Part shown: positions 9,434 to 24,458 of the stretch, piece by piece
Layout: the number at the start of each line of letters is the position of its first letter
Position numbering within the stretch: the stretch's first letter is position 1
Translations under genes and position numbers: made by a program
Assembly (NCBI GenBank): GCA_048882025.1
Contig: JBHLSA010000001.1
Location: 15,520 to 51,135 of the forward strand
Direction of reading: 5' to 3'
Source of the DNA: Candidatus Thorarchaeota archaeon
GTDB taxonomy: Archaea; Asgardarchaeota; Hermodarchaeia; Hermodarchaeales; Hermodarchaeaceae
Length of the DNA stretch: 35,616 nucleotides
The notes under the pieces: generated by a model
Told to the model about the DNA's origin: nothing
Seen by the model: the letters and a program-made list of their open reading frames with translations, nothing else
Databases searched by the model: none

Positions 9434-10610
9434 TCTGAAGTTCTAGTTCATGTTCCAGAACTTCAGCCGGGATATCTGGAAGGCCGATCAGAGTAGTGTT
9501 TCCACGTTGCCCAGGTCCTGAAATTTTCGAGGAGAGAATTCCTAAACCAACAAGCTCTTGGATATATGACCAGACTTGGGTATGAGCACGGGGATTACGA
9601 CCATATTCCTCACACACAAGAGCATAACGCTCCTCTAGCGTGCCAGTGGTCACATAGGCGTCCTCTGAGGATTTCAGTAGCCTACAGGCTGCAAGCAGCA
9701 GTATTTTGGGGTGCAGCGACAAATCCAAGAGAACTTCGCGTCGTACCTCAGACGTTATAAAGGCTTTAGCACTTCGCACAAACTCAGGTGATACGCGAAG
9801 AACGCCTTTCTCATCAGCTACCTTACCTGCATTATACAAAAGTTCTAAGGCGTAGCGCGCATCTCCTGACGAGCCTGCAATATCAGCAATAAGATCCATT
9901 GTGCTTTCAGGCACAGCCCCATCCAGAAATGCCTCTTTTGCACGAAAATTCAGGATATCATGAAGCTGCTGAGAATCATACCGACTAAACTGTATCATGT
10001 TCTTCTGAAGTGTACTCCATGTACTTGGATCTAGAATATACCCAAAGAGTGGATTTCGGCTTATCCCAATTAACGATATTCGCTGTTGAGCATTGAGTTG
10101 ATCATCCACTGTGCGTGATAGCAGATACAGTAGCTCTTCTCCTCGTCGCCTAAGAAATACGCCGAGTTCATCTAGAGTAATTAACAAATACAAATTATGT
10201 GTCTCAATGAAGCTCTGAATAATTGAGAGAAGCTCTTGGGTTGAGAGCCCCCGGAGTGGGATACCAGATTGAAGTGCTGAAAGGATTTTATTTAGAATCA
10301 TGTATTCCGTTCGTTCACGTCGTGCATTAACATGCACGTAGACTAAGTTGAATCCATGGTTTTGAGCGACTTCAGTCAACAGCTTCCCAAAGAGTTTAGT
10401 TACAGAGGTCTTTCCCGAGCCTGTATTACCAATCACAAGAACCTTTTGTGACACACGACCAGGGGCTTCAACTACACCGCGAAACAGCTGGGTAAGTTTA
10501 CGTAGATGCGTTTCGCGATGAGGGAGATTGGGTGGAACATAATCGATTGAGAGCTTCGCTTCATCGATGAATACAGATGGACGTTGTAATTCATGCCGAA
10601 TGATCTCCAT
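9399..10610 (-). CDS. cdc6: Orc1/Cdc6 replication initiator paralog (copy 1)
   Basis: Contains YVPPNLPHRE, Walker A GNTGSGKTS, Walker B ITLDELGVF, SGDARYALELL and a C-terminal winged helix. The ATG at 10610 was preferred over the TTG at 10655. Confidence 0.85.
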   Translation of the reverse strand: MEIIRHELQRPSVFIDEAKLSIDYVPPNLPHRETHLRKLTQLFRGVVEAPGRVSQKVLVIGNTGSGKTSVTKLFGKLLTEVAQNHGFNLVYVHVNARRERTEYMILNKILSALQSGIPLRGLSTQELLSIIQSFIETHNLYLLITLDELGVFLRRRGEELLYLLSRTVDDQLNAQQRISLIGISRNPLFGYILDPSTWSTLQKNMIQFSRYDSQQLHDILNFRAKEAFLDGAVPESTMDLIADIAGSSGDARYALELLYNAGKVADEKGVLRVSPEFVRSAKAFITSEVRREVLLDLSLHPKILLLAACRLLKSSEDAYVTTGTLEERYALVCEEYGRNPRAHTQVWSYIQELVGLGILSSKISGPGQRGNTTLIGLPDIPAEVLEHELELQIDSKRWGRKYD

Positions 10611-10727
10611 CCTGTGTTCTCCATTCGCGATATCTGGAACATGTGGTGGGTGCAATAAAAAGACCAGACAGAGTTGAAGATAAGTGAAAAGAAGATTTTG
10701 AAGGGATTTTGATGGGTTTAGTAGCAG

Positions 10728-11387: not shown

Positions 11388-11828
11388 ATGTCGGATCTTT
11401 GGTGGCCACGATTCATTCGCAAACCGCGCTTGAGACTGCGCAGACCCCAATTAGGGGAAATCCGTATGCCTTCGAAGTGGATATTCTTTGGAATAGCACT
11501 CGTTGTCTACTATTTCATCGTCAGTGGAGGTATGTTTACTTTATCCTATCAGCCCCAACCTCTTATCCCCATGGGTGAAGGACAACCACCTTTAGCTCTT
11601 TATCCAGGCATCCATCGACAACTCCTGATAGAAGGAATTGTAGGAGGCGCCTTATACTTTGTTGGCTTTTTAGGATTCTTTCTGATGTATCAGAGTACAA
11701 GAAATATCTACAGACCACGATATTCCCAAATGCTACTCGCTGCAGGATTAGTGCTCATTCTTGTATCGTTTTTCGGTTGCCAATGGCTAATTAATGAGAA
11801 GTTCCGTTTGGCTAGTGAACTCGGCTAA
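11388..11828 (+). CDS. OSTC/DC2 (Ost3/Ost6-family) oligosaccharyltransferase-subunit homolog
   Basis: 146 aa with three TM helices. By eye it is collinear with human OSTC recalled from memory: YYFIVSGGMF vs SYFLITGGIIY, LLIEGIVGGALYFVGFLGFFLM vs [22 protein letters not shown], and LILVSFFGCQW vs CVLLSFFMARV. Confidence 0.6.
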   Translation: MSDLWWPRFIRKPRLRLRRPQLGEIRMPSKWIFFGIALVVYYFIVSGGMFTLSYQPQPLIPMGEGQPPLALYPGIHRQLLIEGIVGGALYFVGFLGFFLMYQSTRNIYRPRYSQMLLAAGLVLILVSFFGCQWLINEKFRLASELG

Positions 11829-13104: not shown

Positions 13105-13120
13105 TAATTCACACCATGAT

Positions 13121-13147
13121 TTCAATGAATTCAATGAGTTTATTAAT
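13121..13147. promoter_or_regulatory. Tandem 9-bp TTCAWTGAA box array (TTCAATGAA TTCAATGAG TTTATTAAT)
   Basis: Read directly from the sequence. It lies between the XPD stop (13168) and the radB ATG (13104). Confidence 0.6.
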
Positions 13148-13167
13148 AATAATGAATTTTTGAGCAT

Positions 13168-15087
13168 TTATTTTGGTTCATAGAATGATTTCAACTGCTT
13201 ATAGAGAATACCATCTGAATCATCAGCTCGTTTTAAGTTTTCGAGAATCCAACGAGGTAGCAAACGACTACAATACGGAGTTGCATAACGATTGTCTAAA
13301 AAGACAAGGGCACCGCGATCTTCTAGTCTTCGAATCGGTCGACCAGCCGCTTGAGCAGCAGTTCTCATTGCTGGTAATTGATAACCATAAAGTCGCCCCT
13401 TCTGATGATACTGGAGATCAAAATATTCAATTCTTGCTTTTTCTCTTGGGCTGGGTATCGCATAGGGCACCCCCACAACAACTACTGTCTCCATCTCATG
13501 ACCTGGATAATCCTCTCCTTCACAATTTCTTCCTCCTAAAACACCTAACAATGCGGCTCCTTCATCGGCTTTGTTTTTGAAAGCTTTAATTAGTCGATCA
13601 TTGTCACTTGATTTTAGGCCCTGTTTTTCGATGAAGAGTTCACGGTCTATCCGTGAATCTAACCCTGTTTGAAGAAGTGATTTGAGAACTCGATATGATG
13701 GGACAAAAATTCCAATATTATGAGGAGTGGCCTGAACTGCTTCTAGGATGCGTTTAGTAATCTTCTCATACATGTGTGGTGTTCTTTGTCTCATTGCTGT
13801 TGTTACACCGAGACTTATCACTGGAAATATTTGAGTGGGGCTAAATGGTGATGGGAGGGTGAGCGTTTGTGTGTCTTCAGGTAAACCAACCAGTTCTATA
13901 TGAGCGTTAAGAGGTTGTAATGTTCCAGATAAATGAACAGAAGCATGACTAGAATTTAGAATTGAAGCTGACGCATACCTTGGATCTAATGCGATAACTT
14001 CCAGTTGAATAGAAGATTGGTTAATACCATTTCTAATTAAGAAATACGCGGCATCTTGTCTTTCAAGAAAATGACACCATTGAACGAAAAACCTAGCAAC
14101 GTAATGGATATAGCTTATAGGAGGTCTTCCTTCGGCCAAGAGCTTGTAAAGAATTTTATCTCCTTCTTTCAAAAGTTTACTTGTAAATGATTTACACTCA
14201 TTCGTCTTTTTTAACTTGGATATTCGTTGCCCGAATTCTATAGGATCAAATCTAACTTCCTGTTCGGTACTTTCTTTGAGTAGTAATTCAATAGCTTTTT
14301 CGAGCTCGATGCAAAATATTGCTATGGAGCGTAAACCAAACTTCTTTGCTTCTTTTGCGGCTTGCTGGATGGAGGTTAGATTCAGTCTTGCTGAGGCTAG
14401 TTCAACAGCAATTCGTGGTAAATTATGCGCCTCATCAATCAATAGAATGGTCTTTGCCAAAGGTCGATTGAATGCATCAAAGAAGATTGAATTGATATAT
14501 GGATCAAAAACCTGATTATAAGAAGTTGCGACCACGGTAACTAGCGGTAATAACTGTCTTGTCAGCTCATATGGACATACCCGTTCGGTTTTACATTTTT
14601 GCCGAAGCTCTAATCCTGTTAAAGGGTTAAGATAGAAGCGTTTACAATAATCTGGATTCCTTTTCATTTTCTTTAATAAATTAGTGTAGAATTCACACCT
14701 TTCAGTCTGCTTTAGCTGGTTACAAATGAAACTTGCTAATCGAGCACTTGCTGCATATTTTTGAATTATCGGATTTAAGCAAGAGGACGCTCTTCCACGT
14801 TGAACAACCCCGCTAAACCTTGTAGGTTCTGACACACGACGAAGTTCTTGCATTACTCGGTCAAGTTGTTTATGGGTCCGTGCTATGTAGATAATTCCGA
14901 ATTTTTCTTTCTCGAGGAGTGGGAGAACTCCTGATAATGCAGCAATGGTCTTACCAAATCCGTTTGCCGCTTCTACACAGAGATGCTTACCCACTGCTAC
15001 ATCCTCTTGGATGGCTCTTATTAGCCTTAGTTGACCTGGTCGGGGTGATGTGTAAGGAAAATATCGATTTGGTAAATTAGAAGTCAT
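13168..15087 (-). CDS. xpd: XPD/Rad3-family Fe-S DNA helicase
   Basis: Contains Walker A EAANGFGKT, DEAH box IDEAHNL, and four Cys of the FeS domain (SSCLN, CNQL, CEFY, CPYE). The C-terminal helicase motifs are QAAGRPIR and LDNRY. Confidence 0.85.
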   Translation of the reverse strand: MTSNLPNRYFPYTSPRPGQLRLIRAIQEDVAVGKHLCVEAANGFGKTIAALSGVLPLLEKEKFGIIYIARTHKQLDRVMQELRRVSEPTRFSGVVQRGRASSCLNPIIQKYAASARLASFICNQLKQTERCEFYTNLLKKMKRNPDYCKRFYLNPLTGLELRQKCKTERVCPYELTRQLLPLVTVVATSYNQVFDPYINSIFFDAFNRPLAKTILLIDEAHNLPRIAVELASARLNLTSIQQAAKEAKKFGLRSIAIFCIELEKAIELLLKESTEQEVRFDPIEFGQRISKLKKTNECKSFTSKLLKEGDKILYKLLAEGRPPISYIHYVARFFVQWCHFLERQDAAYFLIRNGINQSSIQLEVIALDPRYASASILNSSHASVHLSGTLQPLNAHIELVGLPEDTQTLTLPSPFSPTQIFPVISLGVTTAMRQRTPHMYEKITKRILEAVQATPHNIGIFVPSYRVLKSLLQTGLDSRIDRELFIEKQGLKSSDNDRLIKAFKNKADEGAALLGVLGGRNCEGEDYPGHEMETVVVVGVPYAIPSPREKARIEYFDLQYHQKGRLYGYQLPAMRTAAQAAGRPIRRLEDRGALVFLDNRYATPYCSRLLPRWILENLKRADDSDGILYKQLKSFYEPK

Positions 15088-15164
15088 CGACCAGGTCCTC
15101 AGAATTTGAATGCATTCTACAGATAAAACCTCATTTACTATTCAACTTGTTTGGCTTTTGATAT

Positions 15165-15182
15165 TTCATTGAATTCAATGAA
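15165..15182. promoter_or_regulatory. Perfect 18-nt palindrome TTCATTGAATTCAATGAA (two TTCAWTGAA boxes)
   Basis: Read directly from the sequence. It lies in the divergent intergenic region between XPD (start 15087) and the 15296 ORF. Confidence 0.65.
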
Positions 15183-15295
15183 GTCAATATTTATGTTGAC
15201 AATTTAATTGCTTACCAGTTATTGATGGTGTCGATGGTTTTATTTATGAAAACCAACTATTACGTATACAAAACTGTATCCATGGAGATATGTGA

Positions 15296-15805
15296 TTGAC
15301 TGAAGAAATGAAAGTTGAGGAGACGCGTTCTTGGGCACTTAGAATGCTACAAGACCCAATTACTCAACTTCTCGCGGAGAATAGTCATTTAACAAGAGTT
15401 CAGCTTGAAACCCTCTTGATAGATTATCTTATCGATGGTTTTGGTGTAGAACGTACCGATTATGAAACTAAAGCAACTCTACGAGACTTGAAATCTAGTA
15501 AGAAGCGACAAGGTGTAAGTAGAGGATCATTTAACCGATCACTAGCACAGGCACGTAAAAACGTAACAAGGTCTATTTTCACTCTAGTACTCTTAGGTTA
15601 TCTGGGCCTTTTTGATACACCCTCCCTATTACGCTATCAGGACCTTGCTGAAAATATTCGAACCTATGCACGGGAATATGACCAAGTGGCCACAGACAGC
15701 GGAAAACCCACGCCAACTCATCTTCAAACCTTGAAACAAACCAGGGACCGAATTCTTCAGCTTATTGAGGCGCTTGCACAGCCTCTCGCTTTAAAACCTG
15801 AATGA
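15296..15805 (+). CDS. Hypothetical protein with a putative HTH (sigma-region-4/Tfx-like segment)
   Basis: GVSRGSFNRSLAQARKNVTRSI resembles a region-4-type HTH. The start is either the TTG at 15296, 8 nt after GGAG, or the ATG at 15308. Confidence 0.45.
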   Translation: MTEEMKVEETRSWALRMLQDPITQLLAENSHLTRVQLETLLIDYLIDGFGVERTDYETKATLRDLKSSKKRQGVSRGSFNRSLAQARKNVTRSIFTLVLLGYLGLFDTPSLLRYQDLAENIRTYAREYDQVATDSGKPTPTHLQTLKQTRDRILQLIEALAQPLALKPE

Positions 15806-15825
15806 TTTCAATGAATTCATTGAAA
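15806..15825. promoter_or_regulatory. Perfect 20-nt palindrome TTTCAATGAATTCATTGAAA (two TTCAWTGAA boxes)
   Basis: Read directly from the sequence. It starts 1 nt after the stop of the 15296..15805 ORF, in a convergent 3'-3' gap. Confidence 0.65.
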
Positions 15826-15850
15826 ATAATCTGATGTATTATACTAGGCC

Positions 15851-16420
15851 CTAAAGCAACAACTTAGCCAATTGTTCGCCGCCCTGAGTGCAATCTAATC
15901 CCGCATCTGTCTCTATTACATAACCACATTCTAAGAGATATTTTTTCGCACGCCTGAAATATTCGAAATCAAAACCTCTTTCAAGAAGCTTCGTTTCTTG
16001 GACATTTGATCCCATTTCCATTAGAGTAATTAGAAGCGATAGATACCCGAATTTTGTAATACGATTATTAACTATCAGGGATACTTCTTCTCCTGGTGAG
16101 AGAGATGCAGGTAACCATGCAATGAATGAAAAGAAAACTATCTCATCAAATGATTCAATCAATTGTAGAATCTTTTGTTCTGTACCTGGTTGAACACCTA
16201 ATACACTCTTTCCTAGTTTAACATGTGGTATTTGATCTAAAACTCCGGAGTAGTGATAAGTACGCCTTACCACCTCTCCACTTTTTAGCCTTTGAGTAAT
16301 CTGTTGAGTGTATCCATATAATTCACGAAAGAATTTTGTTTTTCTCGCCTGGCTAGATCCTTTAGGCTGTTGGAAATCAAAAGAAATGACTGAGACCCTG
16401 TTCAATTGTGTTGAAGCCAA
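15851..16420 (-). CDS. Hypothetical protein with an N-terminal ferredoxin-like (Cas2/VapD-like?) region and a C-terminal winged-helix-like region
   Basis: 189 aa. The TTG start lies 8 nt after GGAGG. The N-terminal pattern is VISFDF...KFFRELYGY...Y.YSGVL..KLGKSVLGV. The fold assignment is a guess. Confidence 0.45.
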   Translation of the reverse strand: MASTQLNRVSVISFDFQQPKGSSQARKTKFFRELYGYTQQITQRLKSGEVVRRTYHYSGVLDQIPHVKLGKSVLGVQPGTEQKILQLIESFDEIVFFSFIAWLPASLSPGEEVSLIVNNRITKFGYLSLLITLMEMGSNVQETKLLERGFDFEYFRRAKKYLLECGYVIETDAGLDCTQGGEQLAKLLL

Positions 16421-16503
16421 ATGTTAGACCTCCGGAATTTGGAACTAATATTAGCTTAGAAAAAAGTGTACCCCTGAAAGCTAATTTGAACGAGTTCAGT
16501 CTA

Positions 16504-16539
16504 TTCATTATATTCAATAATTTCATTAATTTTATTGAT
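16504..16539. promoter_or_regulatory. Four degenerate tandem 9-bp boxes (TTCATTATA TTCAATAAT TTCATTAAT TTTATTGAT)
   Basis: Read directly from the sequence. It lies upstream of the 15851..16420 ORF and downstream of the RHH gene. Confidence 0.5.
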
Positions 16540-16588
16540 ATTCTTTGGCATCGAATGAAAAATTGTGAATAGATGGTTAGTTTTCTAC

Positions 16589-16951
16589 TTATCGTTGAAG
16601 TTTCTTGAAGACATCAGGGAAGTCTTTCTTCAGCTTTTCCTCAAGTGCTTCGGCAATGAATCGTGATTTACCACCAAAGCCACCGTATTGTCCTTGACCA
16701 GATTTTGTTGCAGCAACGGCTACAAAATCTAATGCGGCTTTAAGCCAAGCCGGTACGCTAGCACTAATTGTACGGCGACCTTCGTATTCGCTTTCTATGC
16801 GTAGTCTTTTCAGTCCAGAATCTCCAACTCTAGTCGACAACTCGTCTAACTCTATTTCAGTGGTTTCAGATGGTGGTTTTTTCTCTCGGATTTTGGATTT
16901 CTCTTCCTTTTCTTTTTTCATTCGTTCCCTTATCAAATCAGTAGCTGACAT
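16589..16951 (-). CDS. Ribbon-helix-helix (CopG/Arc/MetJ-like) DNA-binding protein
   Basis: The RRTISASVPAWLKAALDF beta-strand and helix, followed by KSRFIAEALEEKL, fit an RHH fold. The N-terminal tail is Lys/Glu-rich. Confidence 0.55.
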   Translation of the reverse strand: MSATDLIRERMKKEKEEKSKIREKKPPSETTEIELDELSTRVGDSGLKRLRIESEYEGRRTISASVPAWLKAALDFVAVAATKSGQGQYGGFGGKSRFIAEALEEKLKKDFPDVFKKLQR

Positions 16952-16964
16952 ACTTCAAATCACC

Positions 16965-18347
16965 TTAGACAAACGTTGAGCCCTTTGTCCATAATTCTGT
17001 GGCCTGAATACGCCCTGCTTCGGGACTATGTATCAGACCCTGCTTTTCAAATAAGTCAAAATCTTCCAACACGCTTTCCCATGACCGGTTATTGGTTAGA
17101 AGCCAAGACTCGATTTCGTCAAGTGAGCGAGGATCGGAAAGAAATTGTAATAGTTGAGTTTGAAAAGATGTAAATTCAGCTCTTGCTTTTGTAACCTCTT
17201 TCTTAACAAACTGCTGCACATATTCTGAATCAACATGATAAACAGAGAAGACCTGTTCGAGGTTATAACCATCATTCACTAACACTTCAGCGCCTCGAAT
17301 TGCATCTTGAAGGCAACGAAGCAAAAGTTCTAACATAATTCCAGGATTTCCTCCTGAATAATTATAAATCGCTTCAAGTGCCTCAGGAGTAAAAGGATGT
17401 AATATCTCCTTAACCTCTTTAGATGTAAGATCAGGTGGTTCTTCTGAATCTAGAGAAAGTTTTTCCATAGCACTCTTGAGATAAGCGATTCGCCAAAGCA
17501 AGACCTTCATCGCACTATTCTTTTTCATCCGACGCATATCATAAATCTCGACAAAGCGTCTTCGAATTGCGGATTTAGTCCCATGGCCAAGTGTTTCGCC
17601 AACAGAAGATAGAAGCTCCAAGGTTTTAATAGCACTTTCTCCTACACGTGTAATTACAGCTAGAGCCAAAACGAGATACCGACGACCATCTCTTGTCTTA
17701 TCATTTACCATGCGTAAGAGTGTGTCAACAATTCGTACACGATTATCAGGTCTTTGTCTTTCTAATTGCCTAAACTCATCAATTAGCAAAACATATGATG
17801 TTTCGTTCTCCTCAGCGTCAGTTCTTAGAGCTAATAATAGACGTGATAGCCGTTTAGCAATTGAACCACTTCGAACAACTCTAACTCCTACCCTGTCAAT
17901 CAAGAAATCACGAACCGTCTGATCACCTAGATTTGCATGAACCAGATCATCGATGAGTGCATCTGCCGAGCTTATACCTTCAAGTCGAATGGCGCGTATT
18001 TTAGGAAGGCGATTTAAGGATTGTTGAATCATTTCTAAGAAAGTGGTTTTCCCCGCACCCAATGGTCCTGAAACAACCACACTTGCAGTTTGATTACGAA
18101 GGTAATTGACAGCCCGTTTGATGGCTAGTGATTCTTCATGAGGAACCACATACAAATCAGCAGAGTCAATGCCAAAGAGCTCAATCCGCTCATTCTTAAA
18201 GCCCCATTTTGCTAGCATTTGTTGATCAAACTTGTGCGTACGTTCGACTAATCGATCTAGTTCACTCAGACTCAACACACCCGGATTTATTGCAGATGAC
18301 TTTTCTATGATATAAGGATTATTAATTGTAATGGAGATATAAAACAT
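16965..18347 (-). CDS. Divergent AAA+ ATPase with a C-terminal winged-helix-like domain (Orc1/Cdc6-like architecture)
   Basis: Contains Walker A SGPLGAGKTT, Walker B VLLIDEFRQLE, a GGNPGIMLELL sensor-2-like segment, and a C-terminal LLQFLSDPRSLDEIESWL...GLI. The ATG at 18347 was preferred, because the longer ORF reads through a box array. Confidence 0.6.
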   Translation of the reverse strand: MFYISITINNPYIIEKSSAINPGVLSLSELDRLVERTHKFDQQMLAKWGFKNERIELFGIDSADLYVVPHEESLAIKRAVNYLRNQTASVVVSGPLGAGKTTFLEMIQQSLNRLPKIRAIRLEGISSADALIDDLVHANLGDQTVRDFLIDRVGVRVVRSGSIAKRLSRLLLALRTDAEENETSYVLLIDEFRQLERQRPDNRVRIVDTLLRMVNDKTRDGRRYLVLALAVITRVGESAIKTLELLSSVGETLGHGTKSAIRRRFVEIYDMRRMKKNSAMKVLLWRIAYLKSAMEKLSLDSEEPPDLTSKEVKEILHPFTPEALEAIYNYSGGNPGIMLELLLRCLQDAIRGAEVLVNDGYNLEQVFSVYHVDSEYVQQFVKKEVTKARAEFTSFQTQLLQFLSDPRSLDEIESWLLTNNRSWESVLEDFDLFEKQGLIHSPEAGRIQATELWTKGSTFV

Positions 18348-18353
18348 ACCAAT

Positions 18354-18380
18354 TCTATTGAATTCAATGAATTTATTGAG
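18354..18380. promoter_or_regulatory. Tandem 9-bp boxes (TCTATTGAA TTCAATGAA TTTATTGAG)
   Basis: Read directly from the sequence. It fills most of the 43-nt gap between the HTH-CBS stop (18391) and the ATPase ATG (18347). Confidence 0.6.
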
Positions 18381-18390
18381 TTTAGTGTTG

Positions 18391-18969
18391 TCAAATCTTA
18401 GTAAATGCGATGACATCAATTTTGGTGATAACCCCGATTGGTCGTCCATTTTCTACCACAATTAGGGCATCAACTCCTGAAACCATTTTAGAAAATACTG
18501 ACTCCACACTTTCAGTAATTTCCACCTCTGTGAAGGGAGGATCCATTATCTCTTGAACTGTCAATGTGAACACATTATGTGAATCCATAGCCATCAGTTC
18601 TCTAATAATAGTCCCCTCACTGATAGAACCCACTGACTTGTTCCCTTTTATTACTGGAAGTTGAGAAATTCCGTGACGTTTCATAAGAATTACTGCTCGT
18701 CTGACCCTATCATTTGGACTAATCCATATCAATGGTTGAAGTTTTGTAGTAGCTCGTTTCCATTTTATGAGGTCCCGAATATTTGATCGGGTCTTTTGTT
18801 TCTTTTCGATTTCATTAAGAATACGTTTCAGAGTCATTATACTAGGATTCACTTTACCTTTTTCGATTCGTGCCACCAATGATTGACTAATCCCCACCAG
18901 CTTAGCTAATTGAGCTTGAGTAAGACCTACCTTTTTCCTTAATTCTTGGAGCTCCTTTGGGGTTGGCAT
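18391..18969 (-). CDS. XRE-type HTH plus CBS-domain-pair regulator
   Basis: GLTQAQLAKLVGISQSLVARIEKG is an XRE-type HTH. It is followed by two CBS-like repeats (...HGISQLPV..., ...DALIVVENGRPIGVITKIDV). The start is either the ATG at 18969 or the TTG at 18984. Confidence 0.75.
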   Translation of the reverse strand: MPTPKELQELRKKVGLTQAQLAKLVGISQSLVARIEKGKVNPSIMTLKRILNEIEKKQKTRSNIRDLIKWKRATTKLQPLIWISPNDRVRRAVILMKRHGISQLPVIKGNKSVGSISEGTIIRELMAMDSHNVFTLTVQEIMDPPFTEVEITESVESVFSKMVSGVDALIVVENGRPIGVITKIDVIAFTKI

Positions 18970-19074
18970 ACGAAATTCCGTCAAATAGGCACCTTCTTTA
19001 TTTCATTATATTATGATGATAACTCCAAAAGAATTAATACTCTGCTACCATCGGTGAAAAAGGAGTTGACACCG

Positions 19075-21399
19075 ATGACAGAAATTCAACAAGCAGAAAT
19101 TCGGGTTGTCGGTGTTGTACAAGGAATTGGTTTTCGCCCGTTCATTTATTCTTTGGCCACAGGTCATAACCTGTTAGGTTATGTATTGAATACAGGAAAC
19201 TCTGCTGTACGAGTCGTTGTTGAGGGGGATAAAGATGAAATTATTGATTTCATTGAATCCATTGAAAATAAGAAACCTCATCTTGCTGTAATTGATAGTA
19301 TACGTACTATTTGGCACCCACCAACAGGTGAATACACTAATTTTCAAATCCGTATCTCAAAAGATGAACAAAAAGCAGGCGGCTCAGTAATACCTTCTGA
19401 TATAGCCATTTGTAATGATTGTATCAAAGATATGCAAAACCCCAAATCCCGACACTATCAATACCCAATGACGTGTTGTGCTATTTGTGGACCACGATAC
19501 ACAACAGTCACTGATACTCCGTATGATAGAGAACGTACCACAATGGATGATTTTCCTTTATGTGACAATTGCGAGGCTGAATTTCTCAATCCAATAGATC
19601 GGCGATATAATGCCCAAACAATTTGTTGCCCTACTTGCGGTCCACAATTTCAGCTACTTGAATCAGACGGATCTATCGTTGATACTACAAACGTATTTGA
19701 AAAGACTGTAAATCTATTAAACGATGGCGCAATTGTTGCGATAAAAGGTTTGGGTGGTATACATCTAGCCGTCATGGCTAGTCTTGAAGATCAAATCACA
19801 CGATTACGAATGATTCGAAAAAAACCCCGCAAACCATTAGCCATAATGTCTCCTGATCTGAATACGATTCGCCAATATGCGGAAATCAGTGATACGGCAG
19901 AACAGCTTCTATGTTCATGGAGACGCCCGATTGTTGTTCTTAAGAAATCCCAGCCATTTCCATTAGCCCCATCTCTTGCACCAGGATTAGACACCATTGG
20001 TGTAATGCTCCCCTATTCAGGAATCTATTTACGACTATTTGAAGGGCTCAATGATCTAGCACTTGTTATGACCAGTGCTAATCCCTCTGGGTTACCAACC
20101 ATAATTCAGGCTAGTACCTACCAAAAACAGTTCATGGAAATGGCAGACTATTTTCTCACACATAACCGAACAATATACCAAAGATGTGATGACTCGGTAG
20201 TCATCCCCATTTACGATCGCGGCCTTATTATTCGCCGCTCAAGAGGATTTACACCAGAACCCATTGAAACAGCTGAATTAGGTCCTTCTATTTTGTCATT
20301 AGGTGCATTAGAAAAAAACACAGGAACCATCTATCAAAAGAAACGTATTTTCATGACACAGCATATTGGGGATGTTGATACCATTGAGACCTTAGAATTT
20401 CTCAAAGATAGTCTCTCCCACCTTCAGAAATTACTCCGTGTTTCGACTTTTGAGGCCATAGCTTGTGATCTACATCCAGATTTTTTGACAACAGAATATG
20501 GTGAGAAACTAGCCCAAGAACAAGAAATCCCACTCGTCAAAGTCCAACACCATCATGCTCATCTTGCTTCATTATTAGCAGACTTCCAATTACCATCTAC
20601 AGAAGAGATAATTGCCATTTGCTGTGATGGTGCAGGATTTGGTAACGATAACACCATTTGGGGGGGAGAAATTTTACGTGGATGCGCGCGCAACTTCCAT
20701 CGCACAGCCCATCTTGAACTTCACCCAATGCCGGGTGGTGATCTTGCAGCCAACTATCCGCTTCGAATGCTTATTGGAATTCTTTCAAAGATCTACTCAC
20801 CCACCGAATTGTACAACCTGTTTGAAAATGAAGCCCAAACCGCATTATCTCAAGGCTCCCAAGAATTAGGGATAGCTATTCAGCAAATTAATCAAAACAT
20901 CAATACTCCCTTAACATCCAGCACAGGACGTGTCCTAGACGCACTTTCTGCACTTCTTGGAGTCTCTTACTTCCGAAGTTATGAAGGCCAACCAGCCATT
21001 GAATTTGAAGCCTATGCCAATATGGGGAATATGAATTCACAGATGGATTTTGAAATTCCTGTAAAACAAGAAGGATCCTCCCAAGTTCTGATTACAAGTG
21101 CACTCATTGACCACATTATGAACCTACGCAAGAAATTCAAAGGACAAGATCTCGCATATGCATCACATCAGATTCTCGGAAAAGGCTTAGCCAACTTAGC
21201 GCTTGATTCGGCTCAAAAGCATGGACTGAAAAAGATCGGTTTTTCAGGCGGGGTGGCCTATAACAGAATTTTAACAACAGTCATCCGAGAAACCATTGAA
21301 GCCGAGGGGTACACCTTCCTAATGCATCGCTATGTACCCCCTGGTGACGCAGGAACCTCTGTCGGCCAATCTCTTGTTGCTCGGGCCATGATTCAATAA
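19075..21399 (+). CDS. hypF: [NiFe]-hydrogenase maturation carbamoyltransferase HypF
   Basis: Has an acylphosphatase domain (VVGVVQGIGFRPFIY), two Zn-finger CxxC pairs (CNDC...CAICGPRYT and CDNC...CPTCGP), a YrdC-like domain and a Kae1-like domain. The ATG at 19075 follows GGAG. The longer ORF start overlaps the upstream gene. Confidence 0.9.
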   Translation: MTEIQQAEIRVVGVVQGIGFRPFIYSLATGHNLLGYVLNTGNSAVRVVVEGDKDEIIDFIESIENKKPHLAVIDSIRTIWHPPTGEYTNFQIRISKDEQKAGGSVIPSDIAICNDCIKDMQNPKSRHYQYPMTCCAICGPRYTTVTDTPYDRERTTMDDFPLCDNCEAEFLNPIDRRYNAQTICCPTCGPQFQLLESDGSIVDTTNVFEKTVNLLNDGAIVAIKGLGGIHLAVMASLEDQITRLRMIRKKPRKPLAIMSPDLNTIRQYAEISDTAEQLLCSWRRPIVVLKKSQPFPLAPSLAPGLDTIGVMLPYSGIYLRLFEGLNDLALVMTSANPSGLPTIIQASTYQKQFMEMADYFLTHNRTIYQRCDDSVVIPIYDRGLIIRRSRGFTPEPIETAELGPSILSLGALEKNTGTIYQKKRIFMTQHIGDVDTIETLEFLKDSLSHLQKLLRVSTFEAIACDLHPDFLTTEYGEKLAQEQEIPLVKVQHHHAHLASLLADFQLPSTEEIIAICCDGAGFGNDNTIWGGEILRGCARNFHRTAHLELHPMPGGDLAANYPLRMLIGILSKIYSPTELYNLFENEAQTALSQGSQELGIAIQQINQNINTPLTSSTGRVLDALSALLGVSYFRSYEGQPAIEFEAYANMGNMNSQMDFEIPVKQEGSSQVLITSALIDHIMNLRKKFKGQDLAYASHQILGKGLANLALDSAQKHGLKKIGFSGGVAYNRILTTVIRETIEAEGYTFLMHRYVPPGDAGTSVGQSLVARAMIQ
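19240..19266. repeat. Box-array-like sequence inside the hypF coding region (ATTATTGAT TTCATTGAA TCCATTGAA)
   Basis: Read directly from the sequence. It encodes EIIDFIESIE in the acylphosphatase domain, so it could be a functional site or a coding coincidence. Confidence 0.35.
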
Positions 21400-21442
21400 T
21401 CAGAGAATCAATAAATTGTGTGTTCAGTTAAACAAAACGTAT

Positions 21443-21469
21443 TTCATTTATTTCATTGAATTCATTAAG
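21443..21469. promoter_or_regulatory. Tandem 9-bp boxes (TTCATTTAT TTCATTGAA TTCATTAAG), in phase with the adjacent mini-ORB
   Basis: Read directly from the sequence. It lies upstream of the 21538 wHTH gene and directly abuts TTCCAGTGGAAAT. Confidence 0.6.
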
Positions 21470-21482
21470 TTCCAGTGGAAAT
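21470..21482 (+). promoter_or_regulatory. Mini-ORB (TTCCAGTGGAAAT)
   Basis: Identical to the first 13 nt of the three full ORB elements. Confidence 0.55.
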
Positions 21483-21537
21483 CATCCACAACTAATATAA
21501 ATACCCGATATTTATCTAGACGTAGAGTTGTAGTATC

Positions 21538-21834
21538 ATGGCAGCTACCCGAACAACACAACAATCCTCCTCAAGCACCCAAAAAACTAAAACTCGCCAA
21601 CGAGTTACAACGATTCAACCCCCAGAATCTGCTGATGTAAAGACTTACATTACTGATCTTTTACGTGATGAAGGTGCACTCACTAGGGGAGATATTACGG
21701 TTAAAACAGGAATCCCACGAACTACCGTATATGATACTCTCATGAATCTTCTTATTGCAGGCATTATTGAGAAATATGTTGAAAGAAATGGCCGCCGTGG
21801 AAGACCCTCTGTTTACTATCAATTAGTAGCTTAG
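21538..21834 (+). CDS. Small winged-helix (TrmB/MarR-like) DNA-binding protein with a low-complexity N-terminal tail
   Basis: GALTRGDITVKTGIPRTTVYDTLMNLLIAGIIEK...GRRGRPSVYYQL fits a wHTH. A TATA-like ATATAAATA lies about 35 nt upstream of the ATG. Confidence 0.65.
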   Translation: MAATRTTQQSSSSTQKTKTRQRVTTIQPPESADVKTYITDLLRDEGALTRGDITVKTGIPRTTVYDTLMNLLIAGIIEKYVERNGRRGRPSVYYQLVA

Positions 21835-21846
21835 TAAATAGACAAA

Positions 21847-21866
21847 CCCCTTTATTTCCACTGGAA
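21847..21866 (-). promoter_or_regulatory. Origin recognition box ORB-a (TTCCAGTGGAAATAAAGGGG on the minus strand)
   Basis: The plus strand reads CCCCTTTATTTCCACTGGAA. This matches the archaeal ORB architecture of a dyad TTCCAGTGGAA followed by a G-string. Confidence 0.8.
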
Positions 21867-22051
21867 CTTCTTATTGAATGTATTTTTTGTTACCCTTTCA
21901 GCTAATCGTAAAATGCGCAAAATCAATTTCTAAAACATCAGCATATTGCAACGAGAGAGTGTAAAGTATTTATACAAGGTAGAATGAAAACATTCGGGTA
22001 TTATTCTTCGAATTATATATTTGAACTACCAAACTTCGACAATTCTTCGAC

Positions 22052-22071
22052 TTCCAGTGGAAATAAAGGGG
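22052..22071 (+). promoter_or_regulatory. Origin recognition box ORB-b (TTCCAGTGGAAATAAAGGGG)
   Basis: An exact 20-nt copy, inverted relative to ORB-a. The two dyads face the roughly 185-bp AT-rich spacer between them. Confidence 0.8.
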
Positions 22072-22201
22072 AGTGGTTCGTTTAGTTTTCCTATCAATTG
22101 GGTAGGGCCAGGATCTTCTTGATTTATAATACCTTATAAAAAAAGTTTATAACTATAGTGCGAAATTTTTTGTAATTTAGTAAAATATAGAAGGAGTTAT
22201 C

Positions 22202-22657
22202 CTAGATTCGGGTTGCTAGTATTGCAGCAATTTCTTCTGTGAGTTCTTCGATGTTAACGCGATATTCACGCTGGGCAGCGGATCCGCGTCTGGTAAGGCT
22301 TCCGTCTTTGTGCATACGTGAGAGATATGTTGATGCTGTGGCTAATGGAATTGATGGTTCAAATGTTCTTTCATAAATTTCCTGGACGTCTTTTGAAGTA
22401 AACCAGCCATGGCGGCAATTTCTAAGGACGATATAGCGAACTTTTTGGCGAACACTCCAAGACTCAATGTCTTGGAGTTCTGCTGTTTCAGTGGTTGATC
22501 CATCTGTAGATTCTTTAGTTCCTGTGCCCATAAGGGCAGAAGCGATGGATTCAGTAATTGATGAAGGGAGGCCATCAGTAAAAGTTAGAGTCACATCGCA
22601 GGATTTTCCGTCTATAAAGAGTCCTTCGATAGTTATCTTTTGTTTTCGCTTCTTCAT
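22202..22657 (-). CDS. Hypothetical winged-helix protein encoded between ORB elements
   Basis: The C-terminal half, YIVLRNCRHGWFTSKDVQEIYE...ATASTYLSRMHKDGSLTRRG, looks like a wHTH. The start is either the ATG at 22657 or the GTG at 22672. Confidence 0.5.
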   Translation of the reverse strand: MKKRKQKITIEGLFIDGKSCDVTLTFTDGLPSSITESIASALMGTGTKESTDGSTTETAELQDIESWSVRQKVRYIVLRNCRHGWFTSKDVQEIYERTFEPSIPLATASTYLSRMHKDGSLTRRGSAAQREYRVNIEELTEEIAAILATRI

Positions 22658-22957
22658 CCGTCGATCACCCACTCTAATCTAGCTCTCCTGTCCCAACTAG
22701 GAAGGCGTGTTAACATAAATAAAAGTGTGATGGTGTGAACTAATAGAGTTAGAAATGTTGGAAAGTATCAGAATTACGTGTACCTTTGAGGTTGAGGTAG
22801 TAAGGCGGTTCTTAGTTTCATTGCGGAGTTAATGAATAAATAAGGTTTCTAAGGGCTTATTTGTAAATTTAAAGCGTTTTGTCCATATTTTGATACTGTT
22901 CATGTGTTGTTAACACTATAACATATAAAATGACAAATCTAAGGCTTTAGAAAGGTT

Positions 22958-22977
22958 TTCCAGTGGAAATAAAGGGG
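22958..22977 (+). promoter_or_regulatory. Origin recognition box ORB-c (TTCCAGTGGAAATAAAGGGG)
   Basis: The third exact 20-nt copy, 245 nt upstream of orc1/cdc6 copy 2. Confidence 0.8.
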
Positions 22978-23222: not shown

Positions 23223-24458
23223 ATGGATGAACAAAGACCGCTTGATCGAATCTTTGATAGACTTAGTTCAGGTCCCACTCTCATTCAGGATCGAAAAGTG
23301 TTGTGGCATTCTTATGTTCCTGACGAACTTCCTCACCGGGAAGAACAAATTACACAAATTGGAAGCATTTTAGCAACAGGATTGAAAGGAAGCCGGCCTT
23401 CGAACGTGTTTGTTTACGGAAAACCAGGTACTGGAAAGACTGCTGTTACTCGGTATGTTCTCCGTGAGTTGACAACGAAGTTTGGAGAACTTCAGTTGCC
23501 TTTTAAGGCCGTGTATTTGAATTGTCGAAACGTGGATACCGATTACCGCGTACTCGCTAGAATTTGTGCAGAACTTGGACAAAAGGTGCCATTCACGGGT
23601 TTACCAACCGATGAGGTTCATTCACGATTAATAGAACTATTGGAAAGCCAAGATATCCTGACAATAATTGTGCTCGATGAAATTGATCGTTTAGTGTTAA
23701 AGAGTGGTGATGATACCCTCTATAAGTTAACACGGATTAATTACGAGCTATCTAAGGCAAGTGTTAGTCTAATCGGAATATCAAACGATCTTAGGTTTCC
23801 TGAATATCTAGATCCACGGGTCTTGAGCAGCCTTAGTGAAGAAAAAGTTATTTTCCATCCCTATACAGCCCTACAATTGCAAGATATTCTTCGACGCCGA
23901 AGTTCACATGGTCTGAAAGAAGGTATCTTGGAAGAGCCTGGTGTCATAAATCTCTGTGCTGCTTTAGCAGCTAGAGAGGAAGGAGATGCTCGACGGGCTC
24001 TTGACCTCTTTAGGGTTGCTGTTGAGATTGCTGAACGCGAAGGAAATAAGATGGTTCAAGTGGACCATGTTGAAAAGGCTCGCTTAAGTATTGAACGGGA
24101 CACGGTACTTGAAGTGTTACGCACTTTACCCGTTCAGCAGAAATTAGTTCTCTATGCTGTCTACCTCCTAGAACGACACAAACACCCTCATCCAGTCACG
24201 GGAGAGGTTCAAGACGTTTATGGTGATTTATGCGCGCAGCTAGGTATGGATCCATTAACGCAACGTCGCGTAAGTGACCTCATCAACGATCTTGATGCAA
24301 TTGGAGTTGTTAATGCAAAGGTCGTCAGCAAGGGGCGTTATGGACGTACCAAGATAATCAGATTGAGTGTAACCAAAACAATGGTAGCCGACGTTTTAGA
24401 ACGCGATTCGCGAATAAAAACACTCTCAAGTTATGTTCCTAAATCACTTGGTAAATAA
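23223..24458 (+). CDS. cdc6: Orc1/Cdc6 replication initiator (copy 2, adjacent to the origin)
   Basis: Contains YVPDELPHREEQ, Walker A YGKPGTGKTA, Walker B IVLDEIDRL, EGDARRALDLFR and a C-terminal winged helix (GRYGRTKIIRL). GGAGG lies about 10 nt upstream of the ATG. Confidence 0.9.
   Translation: MDEQRPLDRIFDRLSSGPTLIQDRKVLWHSYVPDELPHREEQITQIGSILATGLKGSRPSNVFVYGKPGTGKTAVTRYVLRELTTKFGELQLPFKAVYLNCRNVDTDYRVLARICAELGQKVPFTGLPTDEVHSRLIELLESQDILTIIVLDEIDRLVLKSGDDTLYKLTRINYELSKASVSLIGISNDLRFPEYLDPRVLSSLSEEKVIFHPYTALQLQDILRRRSSHGLKEGILEEPGVINLCAALAAREEGDARRALDLFRVAVEIAEREGNKMVQVDHVEKARLSIERDTVLEVLRTLPVQQKLVLYAVYLLERHKHPHPVTGEVQDVYGDLCAQLGMDPLTQRRVSDLINDLDAIGVVNAKVVSKGRYGRTKIIRLSVTKTMVADVLERDSRIKTLSSYVPKSLGK

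Follow-up and report, generated by a model that had tools for sequence, protein, structure and literature searches.

Tandem short palindromes are a recognized binding mode of RHH proteins. In E. coli, several promoters carry two to five contiguous met-boxes of 8 bp, each of which takes up one dimer of the RHH protein MetJ in a cooperative manner; similarly, the omega protein places one dimer on every repeat of its tandem 7-bp heptads. In the plasmid-borne systems omega/delta (pSM19035) and ParG/ParF (TP228), the gene of a small RHH protein with a flexible N-terminal extension lies next to that of an NTPase, which is the layout of type Ib partition cassettes, and the contiguous repeat arrays at nearby promoters, built from non-palindromic 7-bp heptads or from 4-bp boxes, double as operators and centromere. 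CopG of pMV158 and ORF56 of pRN1 are small RHH autorepressors with an upstream operator, co-transcribed with an initiator-type protein (RepB and ORF904, respectively). Bacterial parS sites are palindromes clustered near oriC and the partition operon, some of them intragenic, and their binder ParB is an HTH CTPase clamp with a ParA-type ATPase as partner. Finally, the archaeal Orc1/Cdc6 proteins are ORC-fold ATPases whose ORB sites contain a TTC...GAA dyad.

Two further systems are archaeal. SegAB of the Sulfolobales is chromosomal, with the tandem short repeats of segS beside its own operon; in S. acidocaldarius, the RHH protein SegB, which has disordered regions, binds a 7-bp unit repeated three times in tandem adjacent to segAB, and its ATPase partner SegA is ParA-like (bioRxiv 10.1101/2025.04.15.649018). 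The RHH cell-cycle regulators aCcr1 and CdrS use a 9-bp palindromic box at promoters and in 5′ UTRs, binding of such a palindrome being described for aCcr1 (PMC9976878). In the literature, we found no description of an array layout comparable to the one presented here, which surrounds an operon of an ORC-like ATPase and a small protein.

The locus lies in a 35.6-kb stretch of a Hermodarchaeia (Asgard) genome, hereafter the window. Between 13.1 and 21.5 kb, we observed seven in-phase arrays of two to four boxes with the sequence TTCAWTGAA, and none elsewhere in the window (Table 1). Exact boxes are present 12 times against 1.45 expected, a number that none of 100 shuffles attained, and we counted 10 tandem box dimers with up to three mismatches, compared with an expected 0.21, each of them within 13121-21469. 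With the 95% shuffle threshold of 15.9 bits as cut-off, a position-weight scan for box triplets in 9-bp phase returned exactly these seven arrays at 28.9 to 32.0 bits, while the rest of the window failed; independently, Tandem Repeats Finder reported period 9 at 7/7 arrays. Seven of the eight sites of an earlier note on this DNA, both of its perfect palindromes among them, were verified on the sequence. Its claim that the boxes cluster beside oriC is likewise supported.

Table 1. Arrays, genes and origin elements of the locus, with positions in the window, position-weight scores of the arrays and the relatives in which an array is kept
Feature	Position	Strand	Description	Score (bits)	Kept in
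Array 1	13112..13156 (core in the earlier note, 13121-13147)	.	63-nt gap from XPD stop to radB start	31.1	L034, L094, L106, L125
Array 2	15156..15191	.	divergent gap XPD/ORF169; perfect 18-nt palindrome at 15165-15182	29.0	L094, L106, L123, L125
ORF169	15296..15805	+	conserved; sigma region-4-like HTH (GVSRGAFxRSLxQA); bracketed by arrays 2 and 3		
Array 3	15798..15825	.	convergent (3′-3′) gap ORF169/ORF189, overlapping the ORF169 stop codon; perfect 20-nt palindrome at 15806-15825	30.8	L094, L123, L124, L125, L127
ORF189	15851..16420	-	possible C-terminal winged helix		
Array 4	16495..16539 (core in the earlier note, 16504-16539)	.	four boxes between ORF189 start and stop of the RHH-like gene	29.5	
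RHH-like protein	16589..16951	-	120 aa; 13 nt downstream of the ATPase gene		
ATPase	16965..18278	-	predicted ORC/Cdc6-fold AAA+ ATPase, ~437 aa; open frame runs upstream to 18347 and 18449		
TATA-like element TTTTATATC	18336..18344	-	conserved across 10 sequences in the array 5 alignment		
Array 5	18354..18380	.	three boxes upstream of the ATPase/RHH-like operon promoter, downstream of the HTH-CBS stop	32.0	9 relatives
HTH_3(XRE)-CBS regulator	18391..18984	-	operon neighbor in most lineages		
Array 6 (seventh listed site of the earlier note)	19240..19266	.	three boxes within hypF, codons 56-64 (IIDFIESIE)	31.9	
Array 7 (eighth listed site of the earlier note)	21443..21469	.	three boxes upstream of the small wHTH gene promoter	28.9	
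Mini-ORB TTCCAGTGGAAA (ORB1)	21470..21481	+	first of four marking oriC		
wHTH protein	21538..21834	+	TrmB/Lrs14-like, 98 aa; gene between ORB1 and ORB2		
Other mini-ORBs	21855, 22052, 22958	-, +, +	mark oriC with the first one		
Orc1/Cdc6	23223-24458				

The box has the consensus WTYAWTGAA, with an invariant central A-W-T. Among 48 arrays from the window and 15 relatives, two boxes are found in 15, three in 29 and four in 4, always contiguous and in strict 9-bp phase. Since the central base is identical in 30/41 pairs of neighboring boxes, there is no selection for hairpin pairing. Relative to putative promoters, predicted from conserved TATA-like motifs, the arrays may lie upstream of TATA/BRE, between TATA and start codon, in a 3′-3′ gap or within a gene, so that their positions do not point to one common regulatory logic. 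Most arrays are within about 100 nt of some start codon.

In array 1, degenerate AT-rich boxes come after the strong ones at 13121-13138; boxes lie downstream of a putative TATA and ahead of the radB start, which we set at ATG 13104 from the homologue alignment. One relative, L127, has lost XPD yet retains an array in the merged radB/ORF169 gap. Array 4 (TTCAATAATTTCATTAATTTTAWTGAA) is near-identical in 6/8 aligned relatives and, in L125 and L128, diverged but still recognizable. Array 5 had been described as lying 6 nt upstream of the ATPase ATG (18347), which is probably not the true start: homologues measure 436 to 437 aa and align from residue 24, pointing to a GTG near 18278 as the probable start. 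With the start thus moved, array 5 sits 9 nt upstream, on the sense strand, of the TATA-like TTTTATATC, the putative promoter element of the ATPase/RHH-like operon. At array 6, the same codon is used at 6/8 amino-acid-invariant codons, compared with 55/434 elsewhere in hypF, and it is the highest-scoring 9-codon window of the gene for synonymous-site constraint; its ATT, GAA and TCC codons are retained even in L128, a relative with 53% GC. Array 7 runs without a gap, keeping the 9-nt phase, into the first mini-ORB, within a region of ~50 nt that is almost invariant in three relatives (L125, L127 and L130).

The conservation check that the earlier note had proposed showed the arrays to be retained. 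In 15 related loci, with ~68% nucleotide identity, arrays hold the same gaps while the flanking intergenic DNA has diverged. The same box is present in Ranarchaeia, a second Asgard class in which the ATPase is 54-56% identical (73-88% among full-length Hermodarchaeia database homologues). Two Ranarchaeia loci contain 6 arrays (0.14 expected) and 5 arrays (0.24 expected), and a third has 7. There, the arrays occupy gaps between different genes, yet always around the ATPase/RHH-like operon near Orc1 and ORBs; they therefore follow operon and origin, not radB, XPD or hypF. A DNA-repair regulon is unlikely, as the neighbors of the Ranarchaeia arrays include POR, Alba and adenosine kinase. Orc1 and ORF156 are likewise always found near arrays. 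By position-weight scan, lineages with the ATPase possess 6-9 arrays, whereas those without it have about 2-4, mostly weaker ones; where the small protein occurs without the ATPase, one array is upstream of its gene. Indeed, an array precedes the small-protein operon or gene in every lineage examined, ATPase-less ones included, and another lies past the small-protein stop codon in Hermodarchaeia, L134 and L139. In ATPase-containing lineages, the ORBs are between 0 (contiguous) and about 3 kb from the nearest array, and the array-bearing domain spans about 7.5-11 kb beside or around oriC. Thus, the arrays track operon and origin across two Asgard classes, whichever genes happen to be their neighbors, and they are under selection, synonymous sites included.

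These conservation data effectively refute the reading of the boxes as non-functional products of AT-rich composition, codon repeats, mobile-element remnants, RNA hairpins or terminators, to which we give next to no credence. It is true that the motif is AT-rich and that perfect dimers arise by chance in many unrelated genomes, which account for most of the at least 120 stretches listed in a scan of a genome collection. However, footprints are conserved in two classes while flanks diverge, no shuffle of the window matched the observed counts, the hypF array is synonymously constrained, and the central bases of adjacent boxes are devoid of hairpin-type covariation. Synteny, moreover, is stable, with no transposase and no matches to defense or phage families. 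We therefore consider the boxes real cis-elements, as the earlier note had supposed, rather than a by-product of AT composition.

The most likely binder would be the 120-aa protein encoded within the cluster. Regarding the proposal of an RHH gene in mid-cluster, its central position and an RHH-like sequence pattern were confirmed, while profiles, structural model and hhalign gave the fold no support. In the protein, a charged linker joins a conserved N-terminal peptide to a C-terminal domain that is conserved as well (RRTISASVPAW...GFGGKSRFIAEALE) and of which RR-T-I-S-A-S-V-P and GFGGKS-RFIAEALE are invariant in family alignments of 20 and 14 sequences; in the cross-class set, A64 is replaced by G in one Ranarchaeia sequence and R97 by K in three sequences. 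Read by inspection, and as a pattern only, the domain displays a strand of the RHH type, with a basic residue and alternating polar and hydrophobic ones, and, ahead of helix B, a G-x-S/T/N turn. Wherever the box stays the same, the stretch TIS(A)S, the putative strand that reads the DNA, does not vary, and the N-terminal peptide MSxxDLI[KR]xR[ML] is retained only where the ATPase is present.

The family is an orphan one: at 50% identity, it accounts for 3 clusters in a set of 1.84 billion proteins. The protein and 20 homologues have no Pfam match even at E 10, and the protein has no NCBIfam match; a PDB sequence-profile search found no RHH protein, and hhalign against aligned sequences of eight classic RHH domains returned a probability of 1.6%, with helix B alone aligned. 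There is no detectable sequence similarity to MetJ (PDB profile search, hhalign), nor was a sequence relationship to SegB detected. An AlphaFold model of the monomer (pLDDT 56) places helices at 68-80 and 94-110 after an unassigned segment at 59-67, a predicted secondary structure compatible with strand-helix-helix in which the strand could pair only in a dimer, a monomer being what was modeled; a fold search with this model gave meaningless matches. For this protein, we infer an RHH fold and a role as box binder.

The other product of the operon matches Pfam ATPase_2 and AAA, with a Walker A (GPLGAGKTT) and a Walker B motif (LLIDEF) whose residues G94-G97, G99-T102 and D190-F192 are invariant in 23 homologues; its conservation in relatives equals that of Orc1. 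For its AlphaFold model (pLDDT 82), the best Foldseek matches were A. pernix ORC2 (1w5t, E 2e-9), S. solfataricus Orc1 (2qby), eukaryotic ORC4 and Cdc6, over roughly 430-500 alignment columns with TM-scores of only 0.4-0.5, as expected for flexible domains. Model and matches agree with an AAA+ base, a lid and a C-terminal winged helix as in Orc1/Cdc6, and so uphold the Orc-like ATPase of the earlier note. Even so, the protein matches neither Cdc6_lid (PF22703) nor Cdc6_C (PF09079), both of which are present in both true Orc1/Cdc6 genes of the window, and it scores 12 bits against TIGR02928 (cutoff 181). As modeled, the ATPase is thus ORC-like in fold, yet outside the Orc1/Cdc6 family. Nor is it a ParA/deviant-Walker ATPase; the sole CbiA/ParA-like match in the block is the RadB/KaiC-like protein, whose best match is Rad51.

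In the reading that we favor, at a probability of roughly 45%, the arrays are dsDNA docking sites on which the RHH-like protein would bind cooperatively, control its own operon and, together with the ATPase, assemble a complex spanning multiple sites next to oriC. One symmetric dimer would occupy each 9-bp box, so that two to four cooperatively bound dimers would be neighbors at a distance of 9 bp. A compact palindrome whose center is conserved is better suited to a two-stranded beta ribbon inserted into a single major groove than to an HTH dimer. Autoregulation of the operon is suggested by the array just upstream of its promoter, and some of the remaining arrays are located at, or upstream of, putative promoters of neighboring genes. 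The conserved N-terminal peptide may contact the ATPase, its operon partner, to recruit or regulate it, and seven to nine arrays would come together as one nucleoprotein domain, about 7.5-11 kb long and located next to or around oriC. Local transcription control is certainly at least a side-effect of such a domain; its final role may reach further, to control of the origin or of segregation.

Among the known RHH systems, this arrangement resembles the met-boxes, with a box of 9 bp instead of 8 bp. In contrast with the MetJ regulon, which is dispersed over the genome and has no partner ATPase, the arrays of the loci examined lie in one domain around an ATPase operon. To our knowledge, no MetJ sites occur in 3′-3′ gaps or under synonymous constraint. 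aCcr1 and CdrS share the box length, yet they have one or two boxes per promoter rather than in-phase arrays, their regulon is dispersed genome-wide, and the proteins, at about 58 aa, are without tail or ATPase partner.

Could the boxes instead be ordinary operators of a local regulon, serving ORF169, HTH-CBS or the small wHTH protein and playing no part in structure or at the origin? DNA-binding proteins are unusually frequent in the block, and most arrays are close to start codons. ORF169 in particular is a candidate rival binder: orthologues are next to arrays in every lineage examined, ATPase-less ones included, a co-occurrence as universal as that of the 120-aa protein, and the putative recognition helix has invariant residues (a match to NF003257 is weak). 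HTH-CBS is present in L135, L136, L138 and L139, and the wHTH protein is 83-87% conserved in relatives. However, the L134 locus, with its many arrays, shows no detectable homologue of either within about 10 kb on each side of the ATPase gene. Moreover, HTH dimers do not typically use half-sites spaced by 5 bp or contiguous 9-bp repeats, the candidate target genes are completely different between the two classes, and both the 3′-3′ gap array and the synonymously constrained intragenic array are left unexplained. We regard such a regulon as unlikely.

These two non-promoter positions would be less surprising in an origin-proximal centromere bound by the RHH-like protein, with the ORC-fold ATPase in place of ParA/SegA. 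A stretch of about 7.5-11 kb next to or around oriC contains several conserved sites, arrays are more numerous where the ATPase is present, and neighbor genes are interchangeable between the classes. In addition, the arrays bracket an operon in which an NTPase gene is followed by that of a small, predicted DNA-binding protein whose N-terminal tail is long and charged and has a conserved tip, as in the ParF/ParG and delta/omega cassettes, and SegAB offers a chromosomal archaeal parallel, with ParA-like SegA, RHH protein SegB and tandem repeats by the operon (bioRxiv 10.1101/2025.04.15.649018). Nonetheless, most arrays are near promoters, and the ATPase fold is ORC/Cdc6-like, unlike the Walker-type ParA partners of omega and ParG, SegA or the ATPase partner of ParB. 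SegAB has one full segS site, 166 kb from an origin, compared with 7-9 arrays beside or around oriC here, and parS, of which the intragenic hypF array is reminiscent, is a single 16-bp site rather than a tandem array. We know of no AAA+-driven partition system, and rate this possibility as rather unlikely.

A further possibility concerns the adjacent oriC, where the cumulative GC skew turns near 22 kb: the arrays might control initiation there, as sites for loading, titration or handcuffing. They might recruit the ORC-like paralogue or titrate Orc1, much as datA titrates DnaA; alternatively, the RHH-like protein might control how much of an initiator-like ATPase is made, in the manner of CopG for RepB and of ORF56 for ORF904. 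The box (TTCA-W-TGAA) resembles the mini-ORB dyad (TTCCA-G-TGGAA), and the junction at which array 7 continues into ORB1 in phase is almost invariant. An array also adjoins an ORB in the ATPase-less L136 (at 8063), the ATPase has the ORC/Cdc6 fold and is conserved as strongly as Orc1, and the operon is linked to Orc1 and ORBs in both ATPase-bearing classes, as is the small-protein gene in the ATPase-less lineage. On the other hand, a 9-bp spacing is too tight for an Orc-sized protein on each box, which falls 2 bp short of the ORB dyad and has no ORB flanks, and the ATPase is without a profile match to the Cdc6 lid or winged helix. Arrays reach as far as 8 kb from ORBs and track the operon more closely than the ORBs, ending about 2.9 kb short of them in L139 and lying on both sides in L134. 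Unlike this multi-array domain, the CopG/RepB and ORF56/ORF904 loci are on plasmids, with a single operator and reversed gene order. Overall, we consider origin regulation quite improbable.

Beyond the cooperative docking complex that we favor, a broader and doubtful extension is that Hermodarchaeia and Ranarchaeia share a so far unrecognized origin-proximal chromosome organizer, in which a small adaptor, coating 7-9 arrays over about 7.5-11 kb, would drive an ORC/Cdc6-derived AAA+ ATPase via its N-terminal peptide. If true, this would be a centromere/segregation or origin-licensing device in which an ORC-like engine takes the place of ParA.

Some minor elements of the locus deserve mention. 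Among the loci examined, ORF189 is found only in Hermodarchaeia; it has a weak match to PADLOC WH_III-A (E 0.0023). As the earlier note stated, the window holds no other tandem array, although its list of lone boxes was incomplete, with further ones at 7608 and 31757. The sole lone box compared, at 9107, is not conserved in relatives. Similarly, a degenerate copy reported at 19002-19019 is not kept as boxes in seven relatives; the gap around it instead contains another conserved element.

The arrays of a tandem 9-bp palindrome, TTCAWTGAA (the box), that the earlier note had picked out beside oriC proved to be real. Exact boxes occur 12 times in the window, compared with 1.45 expected from dinucleotide-preserving shuffles, while tandem two-box matches with ≤3 mismatches number 10 versus 0.21 expected, all within 13121-21469. 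Period-9 repeats were found independently at the same places by Tandem Repeats Finder. Scanning the whole 35.6 kb with a weight matrix for three boxes in 9-bp phase, we obtained seven arrays of 29 to 32 bits and nothing else above the shuffle threshold of 15.9 bits, which bears out the claim that no comparable array exists elsewhere in the window. The palindromes quoted in that note, and the junction in 9-nt phase of the last array with the mini-ORB (ORB, Orc1/Cdc6 origin box) at 21470, can be read directly on the sequence. Its list of lone boxes needs amending, as they lie at 4315, 7608, 9107, and 31757. The box at 9107, the one compared with relatives, is not conserved there.

The arrays occupy a block that comprises, in order, the genes for a RadB-like protein, XPD, ORF169, ORF189, a 120-aa protein, a PF01637/AAA ATPase, an HTH-CBS protein, HypF, and a 98-aa wHTH protein. 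To its left lie, in order, genes for EF-2, the small and large RFC subunits, a second Orc1/Cdc6, an OST3/6 homologue, and CarS; to its right, oriC is followed by Orc1/Cdc6 and the PolD small subunit.

Window positions of the box arrays and other features; the setting given for each array is the one conserved across Hermodarchaeia loci
Feature	Position	Setting	Remark
Array 1	13121 (start)	Upstream of radB, downstream of XPD	Between putative TATA and radB start codon
Array 2	15165 (start)	Divergent gap XPD/ORF169	35-50 nt upstream of TATA-like element (XPD; range shared with array 4)
Array 3	15798 (start)	Convergent gap ORF169/ORF189	Away from promoters
Array 4	16513 (start)	Upstream of ORF189, downstream of 120-aa gene	35-50 nt upstream of TATA-like element (ORF189; range shared with array 2)
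Array 5	18354 (start)	Upstream of ATPase operon	Directly upstream of putative TATA/BRE region
Array 6	19240 (start)	Within hypF	Coding region, away from promoters
Array 7	21443 (start)	Downstream of hypF, abutting ORB1	
Lone boxes	4315, 7608, 9107, 31757		
oriC	21470-22969		Marked by four mini-ORBs
Mini-ORBs TTCCAGTGGAAA	21470(+), 21855(-), 22052(+), 22958(+)	oriC	Four, all perfect
Lrs14/TrmB-like wHTH, 98 aa	21538-21834	Between mini-ORBs	
ORF156	22202-22672	Between mini-ORBs	Weak Endo_dU similarity
Second Orc1/Cdc6	9399-10655 (-)		
oriC-adjacent Orc1/Cdc6	23223-24458		
Non-box element CGTATACAAAACTGTATCCATGGAG	15264-15290	Directly upstream of ORF169	
Box-like element ATTATTAAT	18314-18322	~20 nt downstream of operon's TATA-like element	ATTATTGAT in relatives
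Element TGATRATAACTCCAAAAGAATTAATACTCTGC	19016-19048	HTH-CBS/hypF divergent gap	
OST3/OST6-family gene	11388-11828		
11-bp direct repeat GATTTTGAAGG	10694-10716	Gap between second Orc1/Cdc6 and ORF183	Two copies
tRNA-Thr	27679-27775		97 nt
tRNA-Met	30046-30137		92 nt
28-bp tandem duplication	32671-32725	Within 577-aa ORF	

The arrays are also conserved in relatives, a point that the earlier note had left to comparison with related genomes. A collection scan for perfect dimers gave at least 120 matches, mostly chance ones in AT-rich bacteria; among the matches listed, three Hermodarchaeia species have a match inside the orthologous block, at 67 to 70% nucleotide identity. Since all three listed matches of these genomes fall inside the block, perfect dimers elsewhere in them should be few at most. 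Matches at four other Asgard loci (L009, L061, L107, and L118) were dismissed as chance, as these have no proteins in common with the window. The same scan turned up box-like repeats about every 99 nt on an SR1 bacterial contig (L077, 3158-5551), which look like an unrelated coding repeat.

Together with 12 further loci from a protein-guided metagenome scan, all these Hermodarchaeia loci carry arrays at the same positions; related sequences count as partly independent in the conservation statistics. In alignments, the spacers have otherwise diverged and the boxes form the conserved islands. Outside the block from radB to oriC, neither of the two 21-kb loci shows a strong array, the one signal there being a marginal 14.2 bits, versus a threshold of 13.6 bits, at position 20117 of the Hermodarchaeia locus L125. 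The same locus carries an extra array within its XPD gene (7130), without counterpart in the window.

Selection is also visible in the array inside hypF, whose boxes encode IIEFIESIE. Among codons for invariant amino acids, the same codon is kept in 6/8 within this array and in 55/434 in the rest of hypF; of all 9-codon windows in the gene, that of the array scores highest. ATT, GAA, and TCC are kept even in a relative with 53% GC, where these codons are in the minority. Selection thus acts on the DNA sequence as such.

Across 48 arrays, we found two to four boxes each, mostly three, in strict 9-bp phase, with the consensus WTYAWTGAA and positions 4 to 6 (A, W, T) invariant. In 30 of 41 adjacent pairs, both boxes have the same base at the center. 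The arrays are thus direct repeats, each unit being symmetric in itself, and hairpin pairing is not selected; we therefore rejected the possibility that the palindromes serve as hairpins or terminators. We are confident in regarding the arrays as putative protein-binding DNA elements under strong selection.

As for the operon formed by the ATPase gene and the 120-aa protein gene, the earlier note had placed the ATPase start at ATG 18347; judging from homologues, it most likely lies near 18278, which would leave 9 nt between array 5 and a conserved TATA-like element downstream of it. An exact look-up of the 460-aa version of the ATPase returned no record, owing to the gene being called with a different start. 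The lone box-like element downstream of this TATA-like element is conserved as well, does not share the phase of array 5, and may serve as a site of its own for autorepression close to where transcription starts. The non-box element preceding ORF169 is near-identical in both relatives aligned there and could represent either the promoter of ORF169 or an operator in its own right. In the HTH-CBS/hypF gap, the weak box copy that the earlier note had proposed at 19002-19019 did not hold up, its boxes not being kept in relatives; the conserved feature of this gap is instead TGATRATAACTCCAAAAGAATTAATACTCTGC, strongly conserved in 8/8 genomes compared.

What do the arrays follow? The ATPase family is limited to Hermodarchaeia (73 to 88% identity, about as conserved as Orc1) and 'Ranarchaeia' (54 to 56%), and its homologue records carry the names Hermodarchaeia/Hermodarchaeota or Promethearchaeota. 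Three Ranarchaeia loci have the ATPase/120-aa operon together with 6 to 10 arrays of the same box; in two of them, two-box counts are 6 versus 0.14 expected and 5 versus 0.24 expected. Their arrays neighbor genes for DUF2070, ZPR1, POR subunits, Alba, adenosine kinase, an aminotransferase, and an Arf-like GTPase. A DNA-repair regulon, as radB and XPD might suggest, was rejected in view of these unrelated neighbors and of the Hermodarchaeia locus L127 (7454-8845), which lacks XPD and retains the array in the merged radB/ORF169 gap.

The operon lies inside the array domain in every ATPase-containing locus, with ORBs at the edge of the domain in Hermodarchaeia, inside it in one Ranarchaeia locus (L134), and 2.9 kb beyond it in another (L139). 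Distant homologues of the 120-aa protein are found on 'Asgardarchaeia' contigs without the ATPase, where Orc1, ORF156, ORF169, HTH-CBS, and the wHTH protein are still nearby. These contigs have about two to four arrays each, mostly weaker, with one array 85 to 155 nt upstream of the 120-aa gene; in one of them (L136), an array adjoins an ORB. The arrays thus follow the operon and the origin rather than the neighboring genes.

The ATPase gene of the window matches PF01637/AAA, and its product has a confident predicted model (pLDDT 82). In structure comparisons, this model aligned best, over its whole length, with archaeal ORC2 and Orc1 and with eukaryotic ORC4 and Cdc6 (best E 2e-9). Profiles of the Cdc6 lid and WH domains gave no match, so we consider the ATPase as having an ORC-like fold without being a member of that family.

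The 120-aa protein consists of a conserved N-terminal peptide, MSxxDLI[KR]xR[ML]xxEK, a variable charged linker, and a conserved C-terminal domain, Y-x-G-R-R-T-I-S-A-S-V-P-A-W-I-K-A-A-L-D ... G-F-G-G-K-S-R-F-I-A-E-A-L-E. Homologues from both classes with the ATPase retain the N-terminal peptide, whereas those from ATPase-less contigs lack it or have a degenerate version. An exact look-up matched only a 2.4-kb Logan contig, and when 1.84 billion representative proteins were searched with a profile, the result was an orphan family of three clusters at 50% identity with no bridge to known families. As to the earlier note's ribbon-helix-helix (RHH) gene, the sequence pattern and predicted helices do fit an RHH domain, but no support came from Pfam, NCBIfam, or PDB sequence searches, from a fold search with the monomer AlphaFold model, or from hhalign of the family against classic RHH domain sequences.

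We nevertheless regard this RHH-like protein as the most likely binder of the boxes. In every lineage, its own operon or gene is preceded by an array, and the strand with which it would read DNA stays invariant as long as the box does. Lineages that have the ORC-like ATPase also have more arrays and keep the N-terminal peptide. Contiguous compact palindromes are, moreover, a known binding mode of RHH proteins: MetJ and omega act on compact contiguous repeats. Further precedents are aCcr1 for a compact palindrome (PMC9976878) and SegB for contiguous short repeats (bioRxiv 10.1101/2025.04.15.649018). A genuine rival for box binding is ORF169, a sigma-region-4-like HTH protein that is conserved in every lineage and therefore a real contender.

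In the best-supported mechanism, small symmetric dimers would occupy each 9-bp box, side by side and cooperatively, to build a multi-site nucleoprotein domain beside oriC. Such a domain might control transcription locally, regulate the origin, or act in the manner of a centromere, and the arrays in a 3'-3' gap and within a gene, together with the interchangeable neighboring genes, argue for more than a simple regulon. We rejected a defense system or prophage origin, for which PADLOC and PHROGs matched generic P-loop or HTH domains only, and likewise a mobile element bounded by repeats and equipped with a TnsC/TniB-like ATPase, given the stable synteny beside oriC in two classes; no transposase was found at the block loci examined in these classes.

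Individual parts resemble known systems: the arrays tandem-box RHH operators, arrays and operon type Ib and SegAB centromeres, and the operon RHH-plus-initiator operons. The combination, an ORC-fold ATPase within a domain that flanks the origin and has its intergenic gaps filled by seven to nine arrays, appears to be new; we found no counterpart, and full-text literature searches returned no description of the motif, of either protein family, or of the locus. Asgard archaea are the closest prokaryotic relatives of eukaryotes, and to our knowledge their chromosome organization, segregation, and licensing are essentially unknown, the lineages concerned here not being genetically tractable. The locus offers concrete parts, namely a motif with seven to nine conserved sites, an ORC-fold ATPase, and a small orphan putative DNA-binding protein, all fixed beside oriC in two classes. 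Should the ATPase act on the arrays, an ORC-type AAA+ protein would be used outside classical origin recognition, bearing on ORC diversification towards eukaryotes and on the existence of archaeal non-ParA segregation or origin-control systems. Even if read most cautiously, as an autoregulated network of local operators, the locus would provide the first cis-regulatory code to be defined in these lineages.

Around the origin itself, ORF156 lies beside Orc1 in every related Asgard locus covering Orc1, and the wHTH gene does so in most, excluding L134 and L139. The window holds two true Orc1/Cdc6 genes: the oriC-adjacent one is 89 to 94% conserved in relatives, and the second copy, which lies 2.5 kb to the left of the box domain with no ORB adjoining it, is 81 to 84% conserved. 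An 11-bp direct repeat sits beside this second copy. The OST3/OST6-family protein resembles a subunit of the eukaryotic oligosaccharyltransferase and is conserved in every relative whose locus covers its position, which fits an Asgard host. Further along, the window contains a short tandem duplication within an ORF, and tRNA-Thr and tRNA-Met genes that are longer than standard tRNAs and so probably contain introns.
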